From contig JANLPS010000147.1 in assembly GCA_031367385.1 (NCBI GenBank), positions 1 through 35,367 of the forward strand: DNA of 35,367 nucleotides, given 5' to 3'. Source of the stretch: Archangium sp. Lineage in GTDB: Bacteria > Myxococcota > Myxococcia > Myxococcales > Myxococcaceae. The notes under the pieces are model-generated. The model saw only the letters and a program-made list of their open reading frames with translations. It had not been told where the DNA came from and did no database searches. Below, one piece after another: positions 4,570-19,752 of the stretch (positions are counted from its first letter, which is position 1; each line of letters begins with the position of its first letter). The translations under genes and the position numbers were made by a program.

Positions 4570-7428
4570 GTGAGTATCGATGCAGCCCAAGTTCTGTCGT
4601 TAATCGGCAGCGCTGGGCGATTAGTAGGTCTGAAAGAAATTTTGAGAGCAGGCGAACTGAACCCTGGGGTTCAGAACGACCTGAAGCGCATCTTGCGCGA
4701 ATTGGTTCGCTCGGGGCAGCTGGAGCAAGACGGTAAACGCTTCGGGCTGCCGGGCAAGAAGCACACGCAGAAGTCGGGCCCCGCGTGGAAGGGCAAGCCC
4801 GCCAAGGCGGCCACTCCGGCAGCACCGGTGAAGGGCGCGAAGAAGCCGGCGCCTCGCGGCCGGTTCGTGCGCCAGTGGGGTGAGGGGTTCGTGAGCGACG
4901 CGAAGGCGGCGGCTCCGGCGCCCGCGGCGAGAGGCAAGAAGAGCGCGGCGGTGAAGGCGATCTCCGCGCCGCCCCCGCCGACGCCACCGCGACCCGCGGC
5001 GGTTTCGAAGAAGGGTGCACCCAAGGGCCGGCACCAGCAGCAGAGCAAGGCCGCCGGGCCTCCGCCGCCAGCCGCGCGTGGCACCCTGGTCACCGGCATC
5101 ATCAATCACCACCGTGACGGCTTCGCGTTCGTCAAACCGCTGGGAGCGAAGACCGGCGAAGACATCTTCATTCCTCCCGAGCAGGCGCGGCAGGCGTTGG
5201 ATCATGACCAGGTCGTCGTCGAGGTCATTCGCGAGCGCGACGGCAGGTCATCGGGCCGGCTGGTCGAGGTCAAGGCGCGCACCCGGCAGATGGTGATCGG
5301 CGTGTACCACGAGCGACCCGAGGGCTGTTTCGTCACTCCGCGGGAGGCAGAGCTCGGCGGCATTCGGGTGCCGAAGACCCAGCTCGCGCGCGATGGAGAT
5401 CAGGTCAAGGTGCGCCTGGGCGTCGGCGAGAAGTTGCTCGGCCCTCACGTGCAGCTGGTCGGTGAGGTCGCGGGCTCGTTGGGGTCGCAAGACGACCACT
5501 CGATTGAAGTGCTGTCGGTGGCGTACTCGAAGGGCTTTCAAGACGAGTTCCCCCCCGAGGTGATGGACGAGGCCGACGCCTTTGCCCTCGAGGTCAGCGC
5601 GCAGGAGGCCAAGGCTGAAAACCGCCATGATCTTCGCAAGATGCAGCTGGTCACCATCGACGGTGAAGACGCGCGCGACTTCGACGACGCGATCTACGTC
5701 GAGCCCGATGGCCACGGGTGGCGGCTGGTCGTCGCGATCGCCGACGTGACCCACTACGTGCGTGAAGGCACCGAGCTCGACACCGAAGCCCTGCGCCGCG
5801 CCACCAGCGTGTACCTGCCAGGCCGTGTGCTGCCGATGTTGCCCGAGCGGCTCTCGAACGGCTTGTGCTCGCTCAAGCCCGATGTCGACCGGCTCTGCAT
5901 GGTCGCCGACATGAAAATCGACCGCACCGGCACCACCACCCACACCCAAGTGTACCCGGGCGTGATGCGCAGCGCGGCACGCTGCACCTACACCGAAGTA
6001 CACCAGGTGTTGAACGGCGAGAACGTGCCGCACCGCAACGCCTTCAAGCCGCTCTTCGAGAAGGCCAACACGCTGGCCAAGACGCTCACCGAGATGCGCC
6101 GCAAGCGCGGCTCGATTGAGTTCGACTTGCCCGAGACGCGGGTCGAGCTCGATGACAAAGGCATGCCCAAGGGCATGGTTCGCCGCGAGCGCTGGGAGAG
6201 CCACAAGCTCGTCGAAGAATGCATGCTCGCCGCCAACGAAGCGGTCGCGCGGTTCTTTCGCGAGCAGGAGCTGCCCACGGTCAACCGGTTTCACGACGAG
6301 CCCGACGAAGACAAGCTGTCGACCTTCATCAGCCTGCTCGGCGCGTACGGCATACCCGTCAAAGGGGGCGGCGACGCGCTCTCGTCGACCGAGCTCAACG
6401 TCATCTTGAAGAGCCTCGAGGGGCACCCGGAGCAACGGGCCCTCAACCAGCTGGCCCTGCGCTCGATGATGCAAGCCGTCTACTCGTCGAAGCACACCGG
6501 GCACTACGGCCTGGGCGCCGAAGACTACCTGCACTTCACTTCTCCGATTCGCCGCTACCCCGACTTGCTGGTGCACCGGCTGCTCAAGGAGCTGTGGGGC
6601 AAGAAGAAGAAGGGCGCGATGCAGAGCGACGCTCAGGTCGAGAAGCTCGAGGCGATGTCGCAGCAGTCGTCTGAGCGAGAGCGCGCGGCGATGCAGGTCG
6701 AACGAGAGGTGAACCAGCTCTACTCGTGCTTGCTGATGAAAGACCGGGTCGGCGAAGAGTTCGAGGCGACCGTCGCCGGGCTCTCGGAGAACGGGTTCTA
6801 CGTCGAGCTCAACGAGCTGTTCGTCGATGGCTTCGTCAAGGGCGAGACCATCTACCCAGACTTCGAGCTCGAGACCGCGACCTACTCGCTCAACTTCACC
6901 AATGGCCGGGTCGTCAAGGTCGGGCAGAAGTGCCGGGTCGTGCTGACCTCGGTCAACCTGAAGCGCAAGCAGATGGACTACGAGGTCATCTCGTTCGAGG
7001 GCGAGCAGCCGGTGCAGCGCCGATCGCCGGGGGCTCCTGTGGGCCGCGAGCGCGGTGGGCGAGACAAGCAGCCGCAGCGGTTTCAGGGCGGTGGCGGAGG
7101 GTCTCGTGGCAAGCCCAACCCGCATCGACGACAGGCGGGCGGCGCCTCGAACAGGCCTTACGACAAGCGCCGTGAACCGCCTCCGCAAATGCCGACGCCG
7201 CAGCAGCACCACGCGGCGACGCGCCCGGCTGCCCCTGCGACCGATGAGGCGGCTGGCCCGCGCAGCTTCGACCCTCGCGCCGTGCTCGACCGGTTGTGGA
7301 AAGAGCGGGGTGGCAAGCCCAAGGGCGAGGCCGAGAGCGCCCCCAGACGCTTCGAGTCGAAAGACAAGGGCAGCGGCGGCGATCGCGACCGTGGCGGTGG
7401 GTCACGCTCGGGCCGTTGGCGTCGATAA
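4570..7428 (+). CDS. rnr: Ribonuclease R
   Basis: N-terminal HTH, CSD (HRDGFAFV), RNB catalytic TIDGEDARDFDDA, VAIADVTHYV, TSVYLP, HFTSPIRRYPDL, S1 domain and a basic disordered tail. GTG start with AAGGAAG upstream. Confidence 0.96.
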   Translation: MSIDAAQVLSLIGSAGRLVGLKEILRAGELNPGVQNDLKRILRELVRSGQLEQDGKRFGLPGKKHTQKSGPAWKGKPAKAATPAAPVKGAKKPAPRGRFVRQWGEGFVSDAKAAAPAPAARGKKSAAVKAISAPPPPTPPRPAAVSKKGAPKGRHQQQSKAAGPPPPAARGTLVTGIINHHRDGFAFVKPLGAKTGEDIFIPPEQARQALDHDQVVVEVIRERDGRSSGRLVEVKARTRQMVIGVYHERPEGCFVTPREAELGGIRVPKTQLARDGDQVKVRLGVGEKLLGPHVQLVGEVAGSLGSQDDHSIEVLSVAYSKGFQDEFPPEVMDEADAFALEVSAQEAKAENRHDLRKMQLVTIDGEDARDFDDAIYVEPDGHGWRLVVAIADVTHYVREGTELDTEALRRATSVYLPGRVLPMLPERLSNGLCSLKPDVDRLCMVADMKIDRTGTTTHTQVYPGVMRSAARCTYTEVHQVLNGENVPHRNAFKPLFEKANTLAKTLTEMRRKRGSIEFDLPETRVELDDKGMPKGMVRRERWESHKLVEECMLAANEAVARFFREQELPTVNRFHDEPDEDKLSTFISLLGAYGIPVKGGGDALSSTELNVILKSLEGHPEQRALNQLALRSMMQAVYSSKHTGHYGLGAEDYLHFTSPIRRYPDLLVHRLLKELWGKKKKGAMQSDAQVEKLEAMSQQSSERERAAMQVEREVNQLYSCLLMKDRVGEEFEATVAGLSENGFYVELNELFVDGFVKGETIYPDFELETATYSLNFTNGRVVKVGQKCRVVLTSVNLKRKQMDYEVISFEGEQPVQRRSPGAPVGRERGGRDKQPQRFQGGGGGSRGKPNPHRRQAGGASNRPYDKRREPPPQMPTPQQHHAATRPAAPATDEAAGPRSFDPRAVLDRLWKERGGKPKGEAESAPRRFESKDKGSGGDRDRGGGSRSGRWRR

Positions 7429-7459
7429 CCTCTCGATTTGTAAGAATAAAATCATGAGC

Positions 7460-7499
7460 AAGTGCCTCGGGGGGCCTCGCGCCCCGTGGGGCACTTTTG
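7460..7499 (+). terminator. Possible intrinsic terminator after rnr
   Basis: AAGTGCCTC (7460-7468) pairs with GGGGCACTT (7488-7496), with an inner GC stem, running into TTTTGTT. Confidence 0.45.
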
Positions 7500-7514
7500 T
7501 TAGAACCGCCGGCC

Positions 7515-10500
7515 ATGTCGACCATCAACGTCAAGCCGGGTGTTCAGTTTCAGCCGCAACTCTACGCGCAGCCTGAGCCGAAAGAGTGGCTCGAGGCGGT
7601 CGGCAAACAGCTCGAGACGATGGGCGTCTCCCTGATGATCGACGATGCGGCCATGGGCAAGGTCACCGTCAGAAACAGCGCTGAGCTCCAAGCGGCGTTC
7701 ACCGCCCTGCAAGCCGCGTCGACGACGGCCGAGGCCAAGGCGTACATCAGCGATTTGTTCGAGGCGCTCGACGACGTGGTCAAGGGCGACGCGAAGACCG
7801 TGACTGGCGACAGCTTCGACTTCTCGGCCCAGAGCAATGCCTCGAAGGCGCTCGGGTTGGGTGACGGCGTCGCTGGCAACTACGCGGGGCCAGACAGCGA
7901 GTTCGGCAAGGCCGCGATCAGCAAGCCGCAGAGAACGATGGTGATCGACGCGAACACGTTTCAAGTCGTCGCCGGCCCGCTCGACAGCATCAACCACATG
8001 AGCACCGAGACCCTCAAGGGGGCCAAGGTCGCCTACGGCCGCGACGGTGAAGAGGTCGAAGACACCCGCGTCGTCACCGGGCTCACGACCGAACAGACGG
8101 TGCAGCTGGCGATCAACTCGCTCGACGACTTGCAGCGCTCCAAGGCCTCGGTTGGCCAGACGGTCGGCGTGGTGCCGCTCGATGAAATGACGTGGGACAG
8201 TGAGTCGCATGCCTTGCGCCGCGCCAACCCCTATGTGTCTTTCTCGCTCGACAGCCGCAGCCTCGAGCTGAACCCGAACACGGGGCAACCCCGCGTCGGC
8301 GTCGGCCGCGACTTCTTCTTCGACTCGTTCATGGCGAAGAAAGATCTGAGCACCGGGGCTCTGAACAAACAGCTTCAAGACGCCGACCTGATGTTCAGAA
8401 CCCGCATTCGCTACGGCAGCGACAAAGACCCGTTCACCGAGACGCGGGTGTTGGTCGGCATGAAGCAGGGCACGTCGATCGACTCAGACGGTACCAAGCA
8501 CGCTCGCAAGATCGACAACCGTACCGACAGCGCGAATCAGAAGGTGTTCGACACGCTCACCCAGACCGCGCAGACCGGCGTCATCGACGCCTCGTGGGGG
8601 TGGTCGGGCTCGGGCCAAGTCGCTCCGGCGGCCGAGGCGATGTACCGGGTGGCCCTGCAGAAGGGCATCACCGACGACGTTGGTGGAGAAACCGGCGTGC
8701 TGGCGATGGAGCCCGGCGCCGTCGCTCGGCAGATTCGCGGTCGCTATCACCTCAATGAGACCGATCAGTCGTCGCTCCTCCAGGCCTTCAGCGAGGCCGG
8801 AGAGCCGAAGATCAAAGAGCTCGCTGCGTTGATCTCAGCGGCTCCAGATTGGGCGGCGTCGGGTTCTTCGCTGTCGAAGGCCGATCTACTGGCACAGGCC
8901 AACGCCTTGCTCGATCGCAGCGCCATCGTCAGCGCGGCCGCCGCGGGTATCGAGAAGATCGCGCCCGGTACCACGGTCGACAAGAAGCTCATCGACTCGC
9001 TCTGGCCCGACCAACCGGTCACCACCCGTGAACAGGCCAAGCTGCAGCGCGCGGTCGTCGACGCGATTCGCACGCAGTTCGACGCGTTCTCGCAGAACGT
9101 CGATGACCTGCAGCGCAACATCGGCGGGAGCACCTCGAAGTCGGTTCGCGAGGCTGGCAACGCCACCGACGTACGTGACTTCTTGAGGCAAAAATCGGCG
9201 GTCTCGCGCTTCATGGCCGGTGCGCTGGCGAACCCAGAGAGCAAGGTCGACGCGGCCAAGCCCGAGACCTTCGTCGCCTACGCGAAGAAGATCATCGCGA
9301 TGACTGACGCGAAGGAGCGCGCCAAGCTGCTGCAAGGGCTCAGCCTCGGGCTCGATCAGCTCGGCGCGATGAACGAAGACGCGTTCACATCGGCGGTGAA
9401 GATCGACGGCGGGCTCGGCAAAAAGCAGACCTATGACGCGTACTTGGCGGCCTTCGATGCGCAATCGACTGGCGCCAACAAAGACGTGTTCACTGCCGAG
9501 TTGGGCGCGTATCTCGCGGCCAAGAAGAGCCCCGCGCTCTCGACCGCGGCGAACAAAGAGAAGGTCATCGGTGACCTGCGCAAGAACCTGCTGACCGCGC
9601 ACGCCGAAGTGCTGCATCGCCAGGTCGAAGGCGCCGGCGCATGGGGCCAGGGCACCTGGTTCAACAACTACCGGGAGAAGATGTTGAACATCAACCCCCA
9701 GGGGTGGAACTTCATCATCGGGTCGATGGACTACACCGAGTTCTACGACGCGAAGACCGGTGGAGCGCTGACCTTCCCCGAGCGCGTGAGCCGCAAGCCG
9801 CTCGACCCCGCGAAGATGACCGGCGCGATGATCTCGAACGACGTGCAGATCGAGCTCGAAGCCGAAGAGGGCTACACCGGTGCGATTCGCCGCGCGCAGT
9901 ACAGCCTCAATGGTGCCGGAGCGGGCCTGGCGATGGATTACGCGCTCGCCAAGGGCATCACCTCAGTGACCGCGGGCGACGCCGCCGGGTTCGAGAAGTG
10001 GTTCGCCGAGCAAGCTGCGCTGCCGACTGACAAGCGCGAAGCGTTCGTCAATGACGTCAATGCGTTCGCGAAGTCGAAGGGCTCCCCCATCGACATGGCC
10101 AAGGTGATCAACTCGCTGGCCGAGCAAGAGAAGTCGATCGGTGTCTTGGCGGGCTTCGCGAAGGTGTCGAACCCGACGTTGAACTCGGGCGATCGCAAGG
10201 CGCTCGAGGAGTGGTACCGCACCCAGGCCTCGCTGCCCGAAGAGAAGCTCAACGACTTCTTGACCCAGGTGGCGCAGTACGCGGCGGCGCAGAAGAGCGA
10301 GATTCCGCTTTCTCCGAACTTGCTGCGCACGCTCGACTTCAAGCCCTTCGCCGGCACCAACGTGGGCCAAGACGTGACGAAGCACGCGGTCTTGGTCGAG
10401 GACTACAACGTCTCGAACGAGGTCTGGTCGATGGTCAAGCAGTCACAGCGCGACCTGTCGAACGCGCGCGGTGGCGACGTGCAGCGGGTGCTCAAGCTCA

Positions 10501-10577
10501 ACAACATCAAGGGCGCCAAGTGGGAGCCGCCCACCAAGGCCAAGGGCGACTACGCCATCGACCTCGCTCTTCCTTAA
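7515..10577 (+). CDS. Large hypothetical protein (~1020 aa) with a split CYTH/VTC-like domain and helical repeats
   Basis: Long ORF with GC-rich third positions like its neighbours. Start is likely MSTINVK at 7515. Motifs in order: EVE, FFDSFM, FRTRIRY, GMKQG, RKIDNR, MEPGAVARQIRGRYHL, IIGSMDY, VQIELE, TKAKGDY. The CDS is secure but the function is inferred. Confidence 0.75.
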   Translation: MSTINVKPGVQFQPQLYAQPEPKEWLEAVGKQLETMGVSLMIDDAAMGKVTVRNSAELQAAFTALQAASTTAEAKAYISDLFEALDDVVKGDAKTVTGDSFDFSAQSNASKALGLGDGVAGNYAGPDSEFGKAAISKPQRTMVIDANTFQVVAGPLDSINHMSTETLKGAKVAYGRDGEEVEDTRVVTGLTTEQTVQLAINSLDDLQRSKASVGQTVGVVPLDEMTWDSESHALRRANPYVSFSLDSRSLELNPNTGQPRVGVGRDFFFDSFMAKKDLSTGALNKQLQDADLMFRTRIRYGSDKDPFTETRVLVGMKQGTSIDSDGTKHARKIDNRTDSANQKVFDTLTQTAQTGVIDASWGWSGSGQVAPAAEAMYRVALQKGITDDVGGETGVLAMEPGAVARQIRGRYHLNETDQSSLLQAFSEAGEPKIKELAALISAAPDWAASGSSLSKADLLAQANALLDRSAIVSAAAAGIEKIAPGTTVDKKLIDSLWPDQPVTTREQAKLQRAVVDAIRTQFDAFSQNVDDLQRNIGGSTSKSVREAGNATDVRDFLRQKSAVSRFMAGALANPESKVDAAKPETFVAYAKKIIAMTDAKERAKLLQGLSLGLDQLGAMNEDAFTSAVKIDGGLGKKQTYDAYLAAFDAQSTGANKDVFTAELGAYLAAKKSPALSTAANKEKVIGDLRKNLLTAHAEVLHRQVEGAGAWGQGTWFNNYREKMLNINPQGWNFIIGSMDYTEFYDAKTGGALTFPERVSRKPLDPAKMTGAMISNDVQIELEAEEGYTGAIRRAQYSLNGAGAGLAMDYALAKGITSVTAGDAAGFEKWFAEQAALPTDKREAFVNDVNAFAKSKGSPIDMAKVINSLAEQEKSIGVLAGFAKVSNPTLNSGDRKALEEWYRTQASLPEEKLNDFLTQVAQYAAAQKSEIPLSPNLLRTLDFKPFAGTNVGQDVTKHAVLVEDYNVSNEVWSMVKQSQRDLSNARGGDVQRVLKLNNIKGAKWEPPTKAKGDYAIDLALP

Positions 10578-12097
10578 AGCCCGGCGACTTTGCTCGCCGC
10601 GCTGAGCTCCCAGGAGAATTTCACCTTCTGGGTGCCGTTGGGCGGCAGGGTCAGCTCGATGCGAGCGATGCCCTCTTTGCTCACCGGGCCCGGAGCGGGT
10701 GAGCAGTCTTTGGGCAGCAGCTGCACCTCGACGTCTTTGACCTCTGAGACGGGTACCCGCTCTTCGAGAATCACTTTGTGCGCGTGCCGGCTGGCGTTCG
10801 AGACGTGCAGGGTGATGAATTTCTTCGTGCTTTTGCGCCCGGTGAGCTTGGCCTCGTCGCGTTTCTCTTCGACGTCGCGGCTGACCTGAACCCCGTCTTC
10901 GCTGCCGAACGAGAGCTTTACGGTTTCTCCGGCTGCGGCGAAGGGCAGCTGGCCCCGCCCGACGAAGCCGTCGTTGCGAATGAGATCGACCGGGCCGGCG
11001 AGCAAGACTTGACCACTGGTGTTGCCGAAGCGCGCGATGGTCGAAACCACGTTCGTCAGCTCGGCCGGGCACACCCGCTCGATTTGGGCAGGCGCGGTGA
11101 AGCTAGACAAGGCCACCCGGTGTGGCTGGCCATCACTGGGCACGGTGCGCTTGCCGGGGGCTTGAAGCAACCGGGCTTCGCCTCCGTCATCGAGGCCCGG
11201 CAGCTCGGGAGTCGCGCCGCCTTCGCCAGCGGTTTGAATGACCTCTTCGCGAATCGACACATCGATGACCCGCTTCTCTTCTGCAGCCTTGGGGCGCGTG
11301 TGCAGCCGATCTTCCACGAGGGTCGGGGGCGTGGTGCCCAGGGTCGGCCGCGCGGTCGAGAAGGCGAGCTCGACCTGGTGCCACGCTTCGCCGGTGCGCT
11401 GCCAGACCACCGCTTCGGCCTCGAGCAACACCGAGTCGCCGCGCAATGACGCGCGGTAGGCAGGCCTCCACACCGCGCACGGCACCAGGTAGCTGACCCG
11501 TGCCTCGACCTGGCCAGGGCTCGGCGCGTCGACGGTGATGGTCAAGAAGCACTCGAAGTCGGTCTCCTTCGCTTCAGACGCCGACACCGCGCGGCGGGCC
11601 TCGGTGAGCAGGGCCTGGCTCTGGGCATGGGCTTGCTCGGCTTCGCGAAGCTCGAGGTTCGCTTGGGCCTGGCGGCTGTCGAGCACGTCGAGCTGGGTGG
11701 CCCAGACGGCGATCTCGGCACGGCCCACCGCGGTGAGCTCGGCCATCGCTCGCAGCAGGTCGGCGCGGGTCTGTGAGAGCAGCAAGACGCGCGCGGTCAA
11801 TCGGGTGACGACGTCATGGTCGGCGGTGACCGTGTCGGTGAGCTCTTCGACCCGCAACCGCAGGGCCGAGGCGTCGACCGGCACTCCGCCAGCGGGCTTT
11901 TCACGCCAGCGCCGGGTGAGCCTCGAGTCAATCATCTTCGCGCCCTGCACCTCGACTTTGAGCGAGCGATCGACGGCGACCAGCGGCAAGCCATGAACCT
12001 CGAAGGTGGTCAGCCCCGCCTTGGCGGCGACGAGGGTGCCCTTGCGCTCGACCTGGGCGCGGTCTTCCATCACGACGACGCGGGTGACTGGGAGCAT
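10574..12097 (-). CDS. DUF4140/DUF4139 (mucoidy inhibitor MuiA-like) family protein
   Basis: VTRVVVMEDRAQVER N-terminus, coiled coil, SYLV..AVWRPAY, VWQRTGEAW..LAFSTARP, TVPSDG, LLAGP. GGAGGAG SD. Convergent 4-nt overlap (TTAA) with the gene on its left. Confidence 0.85.
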   Translation of the reverse strand: MLPVTRVVVMEDRAQVERKGTLVAAKAGLTTFEVHGLPLVAVDRSLKVEVQGAKMIDSRLTRRWREKPAGGVPVDASALRLRVEELTDTVTADHDVVTRLTARVLLLSQTRADLLRAMAELTAVGRAEIAVWATQLDVLDSRQAQANLELREAEQAHAQSQALLTEARRAVSASEAKETDFECFLTITVDAPSPGQVEARVSYLVPCAVWRPAYRASLRGDSVLLEAEAVVWQRTGEAWHQVELAFSTARPTLGTTPPTLVEDRLHTRPKAAEEKRVIDVSIREEVIQTAGEGGATPELPGLDDGGEARLLQAPGKRTVPSDGQPHRVALSSFTAPAQIERVCPAELTNVVSTIARFGNTSGQVLLAGPVDLIRNDGFVGRGQLPFAAAGETVKLSFGSEDGVQVSRDVEEKRDEAKLTGRKSTKKFITLHVSNASRHAHKVILEERVPVSEVKDVEVQLLPKDCSPAPGPVSKEGIARIELTLPPNGTQKVKFSWELSAASKVAGL

Positions 12098-12098
12098 G

Positions 12099-14252
12099 TC
12101 AGCTCCTCCTGTTGCCGCCGACCAACATGCGGTCAGCGGGGATTCGAACGGTGAACTGCGCTTTGAGCGTCGTGCTCTGGCCGGGCGGCACGGTGATCAC
12201 CCAGCGCCGCGCGCCGTTGGTGACGACGCCGTCGATGGGCTGTTCGAGCTTCTCCCACGGGGGTGAGACGTTCGATTCTTCGACCTTCACGTCTTTCTCG
12301 TTGGGGTCGGGCCAGGGCACCCGCTCGCGCACCTCGAGGTTGGCGGGGGCGGCCAGGCGGTTGCTCACCTCGATGCTCAGCTCGTGCGGCATCACCGCAG
12401 AACCGCCGAGAAAACCGCCAGTGGTCTCGGTGAATTGCGTCTTGCGAGCGACTTTAATCGCCTCTTCGACGCCGAGGCCGAGGCGCTCATTGTTCGCGCC
12501 GGGGGCGATGGCTGGCAGCGAGGTGGTCATCAAGAACTCGTCACCGGCCGAGACATCAACGGGCCCGGGGAGCAGCGCGTGCGGCGACGTATTGTGAATC
12601 GCCAGCGTTCGGTACACCTTGGGTTCGACCGACGGCACGCACACGTACTGCGGCGTGAGGCCGACCTGGCAGGTCATCACCGGCACCGTGACCCACTTGC
12701 CGCTCGAGGGCACGTCGAGGCGGGCCTGGCAGTCGTAGCGGTAGTCGAAATACTCGAGCGAATCGACGGTGCTCGCACCCGGTGGCAGCGGCAGGTACGT
12801 GACGTCGTTCGCTTTGCTGCGCGCGATGTTGACGACCTGCATCACCACGTCGACCTGCACCGAGACGCCCATCGCGAACGACATCGCCCACGGAGAGACG
12901 GGGGTGAGCCTGCCGCGAGACGTGCCGGCCTCGAGCGTTTCGGCCATCATCAGCAAGTCGTAGTCGCGCATATCATCGGCCAATTGCGTGGCGGCCCCAA
13001 CACCGCCGCCCCGTGCGTCTGGCAGCTGAAAGGAGCCGGTAGACTCGAGGTCTATGCCCTCTTCCATCGCGGCCTCTTTTTCGTATGAGGGTGCGGAGTC
13101 GGCGAGCGCGGAGAGATCGTCGATGCTCGAAATCTCGCCGAGGCGGGAGGCCTGCCCCCGTGGCGCAACGCTGCGCCTTCGAGCCATCTCCGGCGGAGAC
13201 GCGCCTCCAAAGCCCGCGGTCGGCGCCGGCATCGACGCGCTCACCATTGGCGCGGCGGCTTTCTTGGCCTTCATCGGTGCCGCCTGCGGCCTCATCACTG
13301 GGGGCGGCGGCGGGGCCACCGCGCGGGTCTCGGCGCGCTCAACGGCGGGCCGCATGGCATCGAAGGCTTCGAACAAGGCCTCGAGCCCCTGTGGGGGTTC
13401 ACGCCACCCTGATCTGGCCGGAGGCGGCTGCGCGCGACCGATTCGCAACGACTTGAGCTCGGGCAGATCGGTGCGGCGGGTCAACGACGCGGTCGACAGC
13501 GCCAGTGAAACGCCCGCCCAGTCTTCGCCAGTGTTTTGGGCAATCGAAGCGCGCATCGCGAGCACTCCGCCGCTGAAGCCTTTGCCCAATCGCAGCTGGT
13601 AGTTCGGAGCCCACCGTGCGCCCGGCACCTGGTACTCGACAGTTAGCTCGAAGGCCGTGCCGGTCGTGGGAGCCGAGAAGGTCACCACCGCTGCGCGAGT
13701 GACTTTCGCTCGCTCGGTGCGTACGGCGGTCGAGGCCTCCCCCAGCCGGCGATTGGCGAGGGTGAGCGCCTCTTGCGCGTCGGCGACTCGTTTTCGCAGC
13801 ACCCGGCGGGCCTTCAACCGCGTGACCAGCCGGCCTTCGACGAAATCGGCCAACGCCAGGGTGGCATCGACCGCGGCTTCGCGCGGCGGGTCACCCGGGT
13901 TGTGCTCGAGCGCCTGCGGCTGCAACGTCTGCAGCTCGTCGATGTCGTTTTCGAGCTGACGGAGCTCAGCGCTGAGCGCGTTGAAGCTCGCTTCAGCTGC
14001 CCGCACCGACTTCTGCTCGGCTGCCGCGTCGACCGCCTCTGAGAGCTCGACGTCGAAGGCCGCGCGCACATCGAGCACCCGCACTCCGGCTGACACCCTG
14101 GCCCGCAGGGAGCCCGGCAAGAGCGCCAGCGGCAACCCAACCACCCGGACCTGCTCGGGTATCGCCTGGTCGGCGCTCAGCTTGACCACCCGGGTGCAGA
14201 CCGCGCCCTCGCGGTAAATCGTTACGGTCTCAAGAGCAGAATGAAGGTTCAC
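12099..14252 (-). CDS. DUF4140/DUF4139 family protein (long paralog with a Pro/Ala-rich insert)
   Basis: VTIYREGAVCTR, coiled coil, YQVPGARWAPNY, QNTGEDWAGVSLALSTA, LLPGPVDV. GTG start with GGAG. Its stop lies 1 nt before the next gene's ATG. Confidence 0.85.
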   Translation of the reverse strand: MNLHSALETVTIYREGAVCTRVVKLSADQAIPEQVRVVGLPLALLPGSLRARVSAGVRVLDVRAAFDVELSEAVDAAAEQKSVRAAEASFNALSAELRQLENDIDELQTLQPQALEHNPGDPPREAAVDATLALADFVEGRLVTRLKARRVLRKRVADAQEALTLANRRLGEASTAVRTERAKVTRAAVVTFSAPTTGTAFELTVEYQVPGARWAPNYQLRLGKGFSGGVLAMRASIAQNTGEDWAGVSLALSTASLTRRTDLPELKSLRIGRAQPPPARSGWREPPQGLEALFEAFDAMRPAVERAETRAVAPPPPPVMRPQAAPMKAKKAAAPMVSASMPAPTAGFGGASPPEMARRRSVAPRGQASRLGEISSIDDLSALADSAPSYEKEAAMEEGIDLESTGSFQLPDARGGGVGAATQLADDMRDYDLLMMAETLEAGTSRGRLTPVSPWAMSFAMGVSVQVDVVMQVVNIARSKANDVTYLPLPPGASTVDSLEYFDYRYDCQARLDVPSSGKWVTVPVMTCQVGLTPQYVCVPSVEPKVYRTLAIHNTSPHALLPGPVDVSAGDEFLMTTSLPAIAPGANNERLGLGVEEAIKVARKTQFTETTGGFLGGSAVMPHELSIEVSNRLAAPANLEVRERVPWPDPNEKDVKVEESNVSPPWEKLEQPIDGVVTNGARRWVITVPPGQSTTLKAQFTVRIPADRMLVGGNRRS

Positions 14253-17910: not shown

Positions 17911-19752
17911 TCATTCTGTCACCTCGGCACGAGGCGCGGAGATCATCGCCTCGAGCTGCCCGGAGAGGCCCAGGTGGTCGGCCGCGCTCTGGAGAAGGAG
18001 CCGCTCTTTGCGGTCGATTCGCCCATCGATCAAGGCCATCGCAATCAGCTCCTGCAAGAAACTCTCGGCCTCACCACTGCCCCTGACGATGAGCCGATCG
18101 AACAGGGCCGGGCCCGCCGTCAAGGCGAGCTCGACGTTCGCGAACGGCACGTTCCACCGTTCGGCACACAGTCGCAGCAGCTTCTTCTCTTTCGCGTCAA
18201 CCACTCCGTCTGCCGCCGCCATCGCAGCCATCAAGTAGAGCAACCGCTGGCGCTCCTCCTGATCGACCCGTCTGGGAGCCGCCTCGACCCGGTTCATTTG
18301 CCGCGCTTGGTGCCCCCATGACTCCCACGAGGCGATTTCTCGAATCACCCAATCGCGCTCGCCAGTCGCGAGCATCGTGCCGCAGAACTCGCACGACACC
18401 GACGCGTTGTCTGACAGGGGCGCTCCGCAATTGGGGCAGCGCGAGGTCGAGAGCCCGTTTGCCTTCACGGTCTGGGCCCCGCTCTTGCGATGCAACGTGA
18501 ACACCGAACGCTGGGGCATCGGGGGCAGGGTGCCCGGCTTCTGCGCGTTCACGACGGTGCCGCTGCGAGCGCTCCACCGAACCTCGAGGTGGGCGAGATC
18601 TCGGTCTGCGCTCTGCGACAACGCGAGGGTATTGACCGCGCCGACCGTGCACTCGAGAAACACCTTGTGCTTGCCCTGCGCGGCGAGCGCGTCGAGCTCG
18701 GTTTTGACCCGTGCCGTCACCTCGGGGTCGGCGATCTTCGACAACTTCGCTGCCTCGCCCGTTGCCTGCGCGTCGACCCACTTCCAGAAACACAGCGAGG
18801 CCCGGTCTTCGAGCGCCTCGGTGTTCAATTCGGGGTCACGCCGCCGTGAATCGGCCAGGCCAGTCACTTCGGCCCCCTCGGAGCCCCGGTACTCGCTGCC
18901 CTGCGTCATCTCAGCCAAGACCCAGTCGTAATTGCCCGAGTTGACGATGGCCTTACAGAACTCGCACTGATTCGAGGCACCCCCATTGAAGGGAGCGCCG
19001 CAATTGGGGCACCCGCCCTGGCTGTCTTTGGTGACCGCTCCGGGCTTTCGAACGAAGCTCCACACCTCGGTGAAGGGCTCGAGCGGCTTCTGCTTGGCCA
19101 GGCCACGCGCCTGCTCGTCGCTCATCGAGCTCGCCGCGTCGTCGTCGCGGGCCTGCGCGTTGACCCGCAGATGCACGGTATCGAAGAAGGGAGACTGCTC
19201 GAGGCCGATGATCTTCAGGTCGATCACCTGCGTGTCGGCGATCGCATCGCGCACACCTTGCAGGTCGAGCAACTTGAGCTGAATTGAAAGCCTGGTGAAC
19301 GTCGCGTCTGACAGGTACCGGCGCACCGGTTCGAGGTTGCGCGTGAACCATGACTCCTGAACCTCGAGAAACAGCTTTCGGGTGCGGTCGAGAAAGGCGA
19401 TCAAATCGAACTGCGGGTCTTGCTTCTTCAGCGCGCCGACCCAGCGATCGACATCGCGCGACGCGACCGTCGTCTGGCGTCGCATTTCGGCTTCATCGAG
19501 CGCCTGCCGGGTCGTGTCAGAGCCCTCGCGGCGCCGAATCACGAAGAAGATGATCACCACCACGACCACGAGGGGTATGCCGACGGCCGGGTAGCGAAAG
19601 ACCAGCTGAAACAGCACCTGAAAAATCAGCTCGCCGATGCCGCTGTCGCCGCCGGAGTCACTGCTTCGACCGGAGTCGTAGTGTTCTCCGCCGCCGACTC
19701 GAGCCAAGGCTGCGGTCGCGGTGACGAGCAAGGCCAGGGCGAGCGTTCGCAC
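17911..19752 (-). CDS. Membrane protein with two Tim44-like + zinc-ribbon modules and a C-terminal TerB-like domain
   Basis: Signal peptide (ATAALA-RVGGG), Gly/Ser linker and TM helices. DPQFD..FL..(Tim44-like)..FTEVWSFVR. Two CPNCGAP-x9-CEFC ribbons each followed by DWV. MAAADGVVDAKEKKLL and MALIDGRIDRKERLLL (TerB-like). Confidence 0.8.
   Translation of the reverse strand: MRTLALALLVTATAALARVGGGEHYDSGRSSDSGGDSGIGELIFQVLFQLVFRYPAVGIPLVVVVVIIFFVIRRREGSDTTRQALDEAEMRRQTTVASRDVDRWVGALKKQDPQFDLIAFLDRTRKLFLEVQESWFTRNLEPVRRYLSDATFTRLSIQLKLLDLQGVRDAIADTQVIDLKIIGLEQSPFFDTVHLRVNAQARDDDAASSMSDEQARGLAKQKPLEPFTEVWSFVRKPGAVTKDSQGGCPNCGAPFNGGASNQCEFCKAIVNSGNYDWVLAEMTQGSEYRGSEGAEVTGLADSRRRDPELNTEALEDRASLCFWKWVDAQATGEAAKLSKIADPEVTARVKTELDALAAQGKHKVFLECTVGAVNTLALSQSADRDLAHLEVRWSARSGTVVNAQKPGTLPPMPQRSVFTLHRKSGAQTVKANGLSTSRCPNCGAPLSDNASVSCEFCGTMLATGERDWVIREIASWESWGHQARQMNRVEAAPRRVDQEERQRLLYLMAAMAAADGVVDAKEKKLLRLCAERWNVPFANVELALTAGPALFDRLIVRGSGEAESFLQELIAMALIDGRIDRKERLLLQSAADHLGLSGQLEAMISAPRAEVTE

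Follow-up and report, generated by a model that had tools for sequence, protein, structure and literature searches.

Triphosphate tunnel metalloenzymes (TTMs) of the CYTH superfamily are built on an eight-stranded antiparallel β-barrel with a C-terminal plug helix, and their tunnels are lined by conserved acidic and basic residues. Those covered by the portions of PMC4641920 and PMC8233210 used here are compact enzymes, or carry appended domains. The window analyzed in this study is a 35,367-nucleotide (nt) stretch of Archangium sp. DNA (Myxococcota; GenBank assembly GCA_031367385.1, contig JANLPS010000147.1, positions 1 to 35,367 of the forward strand). It encodes a protein of 1020 residues (aa), here called the tunnel protein, in which the predicted structure places the same barrel in separated segments around two large helical insertions. 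Judging from this model, the protein almost certainly belongs to the TTM fold class. Its family is likely to be a split variant of the known TTM/CYTH fold, likely (poly)phosphate-binding and probably phosphate-cleaving, which standard annotation misses. No published description of a split-tunnel family was found in a literature search.

The AlphaFold2 model, calculated from a 47-sequence alignment (predicted local distance difference test score, pLDDT, 89.7; predicted template modelling score, pTM, 0.78), displays eight long strands and a C-terminal plug helix, the architecture that defines the superfamily. Foldseek searches against the PDB highlight YgiF (E 7.2e-4), AtTTM3, HpAC1, and SaTTM as the best matches. 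Superposition with VIA-align gave Z 16.1 and a root-mean-square deviation (rmsd) of 3.1 over 198 of 203 residues for AtTTM3 (PDB entry 5a68), Z 15.6 for YgiF (5a60), and Z 13.1 over 177 of 177 residues for SaTTM (7nsf); the corresponding Z scores for ThTPase and Vtc4 are 9.9 and 9.6. In an unbiased search of 48,161 PDB representative chains, ranks 1–17 are all TTM folds, headed by YgiF (5a61, Z 15.9). The aligned range of the model is always approximately 177–1018, and therefore the whole canonical domain of approximately 200 residues is rebuilt from separated segments. A discontinuous TTM/CYTH tunnel had been proposed in an initial annotation made from the DNA sequence alone, with AlphaFold plus a fold search set beforehand as its test, and the barrel is present in the model. 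The same annotation had put the helical insertions at about 320 and 220 residues, close to the 318 and 221 residues delimited here, both helical in the model, and every motif it listed is found where it had placed it in the translation of 7515–10574 (Table I).

Table I. Positions of the tunnel gene, its motifs and structural elements, and neighboring features in the window
Feature	Position (nt)	Strand	Residues	Remarks
Whole tunnel gene	7515–10577	+	1–1020	1020 codons plus stop
N-terminal domain	7515–8024	+	1–170	Mixed α/β; family-specific
Tunnel strand 1	8037–8078	+	175–188	R176, E180, E182; T184 at Lys place of ExExK
Motif EEVEDTR	8049	+	179–185	
Tunnel strand 2	8304–8342	+	264–276	GRDFFFD; D266, D270 invariant
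Motif FFDSFM	8316	+	268–273	
Motif LQDADLMFRTRIRY	8373–8414	+	287–300	
Tunnel strand 3	8388–8414	+	292–300	R295-x-R297-x-R299
Tunnel strands 4 and 5	8445–8525	+	311–322, 327–337	R311, K317, K332, D334, R336
Motif LVGMK	8451	+	313–317	
Motif ARKIDNR	8502	+	330–336	
Tunnel strand 6	8706–8759	+	398–415	R408, R410, H412
Motif MEPGAVARQIRGRYHL	8706–8753	+	398–413	
Helical insert 1	8760–9713	+	416–733	318 aa; between strands 6 and 7; long helices out and back
Tunnel strand 7	9714–9749	+	734–745	I735, S737, D739
Motif IIGSMDYTEF	9714	+	734–743	
Tunnel strand 8	9822–9854	+	770–780	D776, Q778, E780; strand 770–779 in the model
Motif VQIELE	9843	+	777–782	
Helical insert 2	9855–10517	+	781–1001	221 aa; between strand 8 and plug
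Tandem repeat within insert 2	9960–10313	+	816–862 vs 887–933	
C-terminal short strand and plug helix	10518–10574	+	1002–1020	Strand 1002–1004, helix 1010–1018; invariant K1010
C-terminal motif PPTKAKGDYAIDL		+	1005–1017	
RNase R homolog	4570–7428	+		952 aa; RNB, OB_RNB, CSD2, and S1 domains
AT-rich stretch	7435–7460			Precedes the hairpin
Terminator-like hairpin	7474–7499			GC-rich; 8 pairs, 6 of them G-C; followed by ACTTTTGTTA
First DUF4140/DUF4139 gene	10574–12097	−		507 aa; convergent with tunnel gene
Second DUF4140/DUF4139 gene	12099–14252	−		717 aa; adjoins the first
Tim44-like/zinc ribbon/TerB-like protein	17911–19752	−		613 aa

Conservation within the protein peaks at the listed motifs, with mean column values of 0.88–0.97 in the eight strands versus 0.72–0.75 in the inserts. 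They also hold the invariant columns of both the 47-sequence alignment and a divergent 16-sequence alignment (down to 25% identity), and the set therefore goes beyond chance. Residues invariant in the 16 sequences are R176, E180, E182, D266, D270, R295, R297, R299, R311, K317, K332, D334, R336, D338, R405, R408, R410, H412, D739, Q778, E780, E784, and K1010. Among 73 relatives of at least 550 aa (denominators give the sequences aligned at a position), strand 1 keeps R176 in 63/63, E180 in 62/63, and E182 in 63/63; strands 3–5 keep R295, R297, K317, K332, D334, and R336 in 67/67 each; strand 6 keeps R408 and R410 in 68/68; and strands 7–8 keep D739 in 53/54 and Q778 and E780 in 52/53. The invariant charged residues follow the alternation of each strand: most strands have them all on a single phase, the remaining strands have the majority of them there, and the opposite phase is mostly hydrophobic. 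Conserved acidic and basic tunnel residues, the second hallmark of the superfamily, are thus found in 52–68 of 53–68 relatives with their placement judged from strand phase, and the expectation that such residues would be conserved in homologs and share one face of each strand is borne out.

The label "orphan" that the gene had initially received is mistaken. A word-indexed search returned 61 homologous clusters at E ≤ 0.001, nearly all of 1000–1100 aa and 46–68% identical, all labelled "hypothetical," those with named sources coming from Myxococcota, Myxococcaceae, or Archangiaceae metagenome-assembled genomes (MAGs). Matches at the same threshold occur in 27 of 301 Myxococcota genomes, including relatives of 860–1070 aa and 24–40% identity from other taxonomic families; two large genera of the same taxonomic family have none at E ≤ 0.001 (0/18 and 0/29 genomes). 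The protein's own genome, which is 98% complete, encodes a 598-aa paralog (P0063; G000:C50:61072–62868, L002:751–2547, L050:9073–10866), related to the tunnel protein at BLASTP E 4e-8. Profile–profile comparison joins the long family to the family of this compact paralog with a probability of 98.9% (E 1.2e-17, residues 3–441). The paralog family comprises 127 clusters and is present in 19/301 genomes at E ≤ 1e-10, chiefly those of the same genera. The paralog shares the N-domain; its tunnel has small inserts only, strand 8 retains ExExD, as it does in the paralog family, and the plug carries SKxxR. The genome has no other CYTH-like match, and no canonical CYTH gene was detected in it at E ≤ 1e-5; the gene neighborhood of the paralog is uninformative. 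As had been anticipated on account of the inserts, profile searches miss the long family: none of 47 members matches Pfam CYTH (PF01928; gathering score 23.2 bits) at E ≤ 0.1. For the compact paralog family, 5/39 members match at E ≤ 0.01, and the best, the paralog itself, scores 22.5 bits and remains under the cut-off.

Residue equivalences to AtTTM3 were obtained through a chain of alignments, anchored on a canonical CYTH reference set of 11 proteins from Myxococcota genomes. A PDB profile search with this set aligns it residue by residue to AtTTM3, its invariant columns mapping to E2/E4/K6, R52/R54, K76, E90, R143, E154/D156, E167/E169/E171, and K200. The compact paralog family aligns to the same 11 proteins in three collinear pieces (strands 2–5, E 4.3e-4; strands 2–3, E 5.2e-5; plug, E 2.7e-5). 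Direct comparison of the long family with canonical CYTH gave E 0.19 over the whole length and E 0.28 for strands 1–6 alone, with a weak alignment at strand 8 only (E 0.008, probability 4.9%). Through this chain E180/E182 would correspond to AtTTM3 E2/E4, which bind the site-2 metal, and R295 to R52, which is essential and thought to contact the β–γ bridging oxygen. R297, K317, and D334 would correspond to R54, K76, and E90, and K1010 to K200, the position of Vtc4p K458. The residue roles are those given in the available part of PMC4641920, for mapped AtTTM3 residues other than R143, E154, D156, and E167.

The acidic motif of strand 8 is most likely D776-x-Q778-x-E780, rather than the "hEhE" first read in VQIELE. 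The family consensus is E/D776-x-Q778-x-E780, with Glu at position 776 in most relatives. In the most likely register, taken from the weak strand 8 alignment (E 0.008, probability 4.9%), Q778 sits on AtTTM3 E169, the metal-1 Glu, and E780 on E171; this register is preferred because two sub-alignments agree on it, a helix starts directly after E780, and position 782 is mostly Gly. The other register considered, with Q778 in the place of a His and E780/E782/E784 forming ExExE, was dropped since 782 is mostly Gly, 776 is mostly Glu, and both sub-alignments favor D776/Q778/E780.

In the model, insert 1 lies within the hairpin of strands 6 and 7, and insert 2 stands in place of the short helix that joins strand 8 to the plug. 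Both are close to neutral and poor in His (net charge +1 with two His, and 0 with one His, respectively). In distant relatives they are shorter by approximately 130 and 90 aa, as seen in the 16-sequence alignment. Part of insert 2 is duplicated in tandem: the two copies align locally with a score of 77 (z 13.3), which none of 300 shuffles equaled. The helical arms thus vary in length and owe part of their growth to this duplication, and an accessory role is predicted for them, in partner binding, substrate selection, or regulation. In the fold searches insert 1 matched generic helical bundles only (Z ≤ 8.1), under the noise level stated by the tool for such folds, and resemblances of the inserts to pore-forming toxins (AhlB, MakB, XaxB; Z 5.2–6.6), to the talin rod (Z 8.1), or to designed four-helix bundles (Z 8.0) were set aside on the same ground. 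A CHAD-like nature was rejected on the neutral, His-poor composition, CHAD domains having conserved His residues and a basic surface on their helical bundle, and on the lack of a Pfam match; the CHAD part of YgiF did not align to the model (chain range 0..201 only), a result that does not by itself speak against CHAD at the level of fold.

The N-domain (residues 1–170), modelled on its own with pLDDT 84.9, resembles no known structure, the best of 48,161 chains reaching Z 4.2 and none Z ≥ 5. The ESM Atlas held no usable match for the whole protein or for the N-domain. A search of the protein's own genome with an N-domain profile matched only the tunnel gene and the 598-aa paralog, and the domain is missing from the signal-peptide-bearing relatives described below.

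Taken together, our analysis leans towards a hydrolase-type enzyme. In the mechanism envisaged, the split CYTH-type tunnel would bind a polyphosphate-type substrate with a divalent metal and then hydrolyze it. By homology to AtTTM3 and YgiF, the water-activating catalytic metal (site 2) would have E180, E182, and E780 as its ligands, and R295 would touch the leaving group at its bridging oxygen. The phosphate chain would be bound by R297, R299, R311, K317, K332, R336, R408, R410, H412, and K1010. This basic lining is denser than that of canonical CYTH proteins, which suggests a ligand longer or more highly charged than tripolyphosphate (PPPi). With Q778 probably in place of the site-1 Glu and no Lys left in the ExExK motif, the chemistry may be modified. 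Among described subfamilies the signature is that of the TTM type, as there is no HF, the first Arg of RxR is kept, and no aromatic residue precedes RxR. The W/YxRxR signature of thiamine triphosphatases is absent, with M293 two residues before R295 at a position that varies among relatives. As signatures of the polyphosphate polymerase VTC, the class IV cyclases, and thiamine triphosphatase are all lacking, the favored candidates are a hydrolase-type tunnel in which site 1 is modified and a purely binding tunnel. Of the triphosphatase, cyclase, and polyphosphate-related activities offered in the initial annotation, cyclase and VTC polymerase are accordingly improbable.

A non-catalytic tunnel would serve as a ligand-binding sensor, carrier, or anchor, or as a scaffold like Med18/Med20 and RESC, with the real function held by the arms; we consider this unlikely, though by no means negligible. 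Several observations that tell against an active enzyme point in this direction. Only the two Glu of the expected ExExK motif are retained, as E180-x-E182, and the Lys position is T184 here, Val (27), Thr (17), or Ala (16) among 63 relatives, and Trp in the compact paralog family. The metal-1 Glu is invariant in the characterized TTMs, where its mutation strongly lowers activity (as reported in PMC4641920), and this position is probably occupied by Q778. Non-catalytic TTM-like folds, namely Med18 (Z 9.7) and RESC (Z 6.4–6.6), are among the structural matches, and over half of the protein consists of helical arms and an N-domain of no known fold. However, the site-2 triad E180/E182/E780 and the essential R295 are kept in 52–67 of 53–67 relatives, and enzymes match the model (Z 13–16) well above scaffolds (Z below 10). 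Other points weigh against the hydrolase-type reading in general. Position 782, which is Glu here, is Gly in most relatives. The structure is a predicted one, and the co-location of residues is judged from strand phase and whole-domain superposition scores. Pfam gives only sub-threshold noise for the tunnel protein and NCBIfam no family; PADLOC reports nothing for the tunnel protein, the paralog, or three neighbors; and a PDB profile search returned nothing below E 0.045 for the long family and no match for the compact one. Neighborhood support is equally missing, none of the RNase R, DUF4140/DUF4139, and urocanase genes that surround the tunnel gene recurring next to relatives' loci.

An RNA or nucleic-acid 5′-triphosphatase, which would take a triphosphate end into the tunnel as Cet1-type enzymes do and grip the nucleic acid with the arms, is brought to mind by the upstream RNase R gene and by matches in the 48,161-chain search to Cet1 (1d8h, Z 8.7), the mimivirus enzyme (Z 8.4), and Trypanosoma cruzi Cet1 (Z 8.0). 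It is nevertheless quite improbable: enzymes of the CYTH branch match much better (Z 10–16), RNase R is adjacent in none of 19 relatives' loci, the arms are charge-neutral, and most relatives look exported. A class IV (CyaB) nucleotide cyclase is more improbable again, despite the match to Yersinia pestis AC-IV in the same search (2fjt, Z 10.9) and the Gly found at position 782 in distant relatives. Class IV cyclases are marked in PMC8233210 by HFxxxxExExK, by an RxR whose first Arg has given way to a small residue, and by an ExA motif in strand 8; the tunnel protein has Y174-G175 instead of HF, an invariant R295, and E780. Least probable of all is a VTC-like polyphosphate polymerase. K1010 does take the position of the catalytic Vtc4p K458, the tunnel lining is densely basic, and Vtc4 and Vtc2 match at Z 9.3–9.6; yet the CYTH branch matches far better (Z 16), neither an SPX domain (Pfam) nor a membrane partner was seen, and the acidic patch E180/E182, which Vtc4p lacks according to PMC4641920, is present and invariant.

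The protein belongs to a wider superfamily. An exhaustive HMMER search with the divergent alignment against 1.84 billion representatives returned 163 cluster representatives at E ≤ 0.001, of which 145 pass E ≤ 1e-10 and 103 pass E ≤ 1e-30. Many of these relatives (580–980 aa) match only from profile position approximately 155 onwards, and therefore are without the N-domain. The long family aligns with ten such relatives at E 4.9e-55 over residues 154–805 (hhalign). Among the representatives, 68 begin with Met and reach 550 aa or more, and their N-termini were classified by a hydrophobicity heuristic rather than a trained predictor: 40 have no N-domain and a signal-peptide-like N-terminus (18 with a lipobox-like Cys), 17 have neither (several being borderline or truncated), and 11 have the N-domain, none of them with a signal-like N-terminus. 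The superfamily is centered on Myxococcota and Bradymonadia, and by these sequence features most members bear signal-peptide or lipoprotein-like N-termini. In species-representative genomes, 55 loci of the exported type were found, in Kofleriaceae, Haliangiales, Polyangiaceae/Polyangiales, Nannocystaceae, Bradymonadia/Bradymonadales, Myxococcales, and two Planctomycetota MAGs. In two relatives (P0232 and P0235; 1547–1689 aa) the split tunnel is preceded by a Peptidase_S8 (subtilase) domain, and one of the two ends in a DUF4056 as well; one relative has a PPC domain and one a proprotein-convertase P domain. Peptidase_S8, PPC, and proprotein-convertase P domains occur mainly in secreted proteases. 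Between lipobox and tunnel, exported relatives have a region with a conserved acidic motif (approximately residues 85–130 of P0208) that may resemble a ComEA-type helix-hairpin-helix, a likeness that found no support in Pfam.

A gene for an SdiA-regulated/phytase-like β-propeller lipoprotein (PF06977, PF13449) neighbors the exported tunnel gene in 13 of the 38 loci that exceed 9 kb; in 11 of the 13 it is directly upstream in divergent orientation, in one it is one gene away, and in one it is downstream. The same propeller family adjoins three of five distant N-domain-type loci, one of which (L046) is the same contig as L093; in the genome studied here PF06977 genes are present, but away from the tunnel gene. 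Two further kinds of gene turn up repeatedly around the exported tunnel gene in several loci of the Kofleriaceae type: Ser/Thr-kinase-like genes of approximately 1040 aa, named by sequence motifs, and a gene that from its N-terminal sequence we take to be sucC-like. Both recurrences are probably plain synteny among relatives. It is tempting to speculate that these proteins form a mostly exported, hitherto unrecognized TTM branch, largely of predatory Myxococcota and Bradymonadia, defined by a split barrel, the metal-1 Glu-to-Gln exchange, and frequent pairing with a propeller. Such a branch might capture or cleave polyphosphorylated compounds (polyphosphate, phytate, nucleotides) outside the cytoplasm, in predation or phosphate scavenging. 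The window protein would then be a signal-less offshoot with the N-domain in place of the signal peptide, perhaps as another export or targeting device. We regard this scenario as rather doubtful.

Within the window, 7497–10577 (+) is the sole long frame with high G+C at third codon positions across the tunnel gene. The ATG at 7515 is taken as the start in preference to the TTG at 7497 because homologs share that first Met. The encoded protein has no signal peptide, transmembrane segment, or Cys (maximum Kyte–Doolittle value in a 19-residue window, 1.09). The RNase R gene lies directly 5′, with MoeA and GTP cyclohydrolase II farther upstream; the RNase R homolog has long low-complexity tails rich in Lys, Pro, Ala, Gly, and Arg at both ends. 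The terminator-like hairpin downstream of the RNase R gene probably terminates that gene. It ends approximately 20 nt before the ATG, and there is therefore almost no space for a promoter or ribosome-binding site of the tunnel gene. The interval 7200–10900 yielded no sigma-70-like promoter, and Rfam gave no match in the region upstream of the tunnel gene. On the other side, the stop of the first DUF4140/DUF4139 gene overlaps the stop-codon region of the tunnel gene, and a urocanase gene follows the pair. An operon-based reading of function finds no support, as these housekeeping-like neighbors are not conserved beside relatives. Farther along, the 613-aa protein joins Tim44-like, zinc ribbon, and TerB-like domains in an unusual combination. 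The stretch was found in six DNA runs from sediment and freshwater-sediment metagenomes of two studies, one possibly its source; there was no RNA run among those listed.

In the model, two insertions, each exceeding 200 residues, are accommodated in a barrel of approximately 200 residues with almost every tunnel residue conserved. The family further differs from described TTMs in that it escapes Pfam, NCBIfam, and PDB sequence searches, that most members look exported, and that two hallmark residues are consistently replaced, namely the ExExK Lys and probably the metal-1 Glu. If active, the family would extend what tunnel enzymes are known to catalyze and where in the cell they occur, and would provide an entry point to the way predatory bacteria of soil and sediment deal with (poly)phosphate; if inactive, it would exemplify in bacteria the conversion of a tunnel into a binding module. 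Either way, approximately 160 "hypothetical" sequence clusters can receive a fold-level annotation.

Compared with known systems, the tunnel protein shares barrel topology with the non-enzymatic Med18/Med20 and RESC1/2 (Z 6.4–9.7), a likeness at the level of fold, and these proteins rank under TTM enzymes (Z 10–16). With the tunnel domains of Vtc4 and Vtc2 it has in common the fold (Z 8.1–9.6), the plug-helix Lys, and many basic tunnel residues, but Vtc4 lacks the acidic patch and has an SPX domain and membrane partners. Plant TTM1/TTM2 (7z67, Z 10.3) are likewise multi-domain TTMs, from a cluster that is without the ExExK hallmark according to PMC8233210; their kinase, coiled coil, and membrane anchor are appended, however, and not inserted into the barrel. 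Stand-alone TTMs (SaTTM 7nsf, PH1819, BH2851) have the same fold (Z 11–13.4, 160–187 residues) and the TTM-type signature as given in PMC8233210, but are cytosolic proteins of approximately 180 aa matched by Pfam CYTH, in contrast to a protein of 1020 aa that is invisible to Pfam. The closest resemblance is to AtTTM3 and YgiF (5a68, 5a67, 5a60, 5a61), on which the whole tunnel domain superposes with Z 15.6–16.1 and rmsd 3.1–3.2 over 198–200 residues. Equivalents of AtTTM3 E2/E4, R52/R54, K76, E90, E171, and K200 appear to be kept, as is the C-terminal plug helix. Unlike both, the tunnel protein is split by its inserts, has an extra N-domain, lacks the ExExK Lys, probably has Gln at the metal-1 Glu, and adds the basic residues R176, R299, R311, K332, R336, and R410. 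The helical CHAD domain of YgiF is appended to its tunnel, whereas the helical modules of the tunnel protein are inserted into it.

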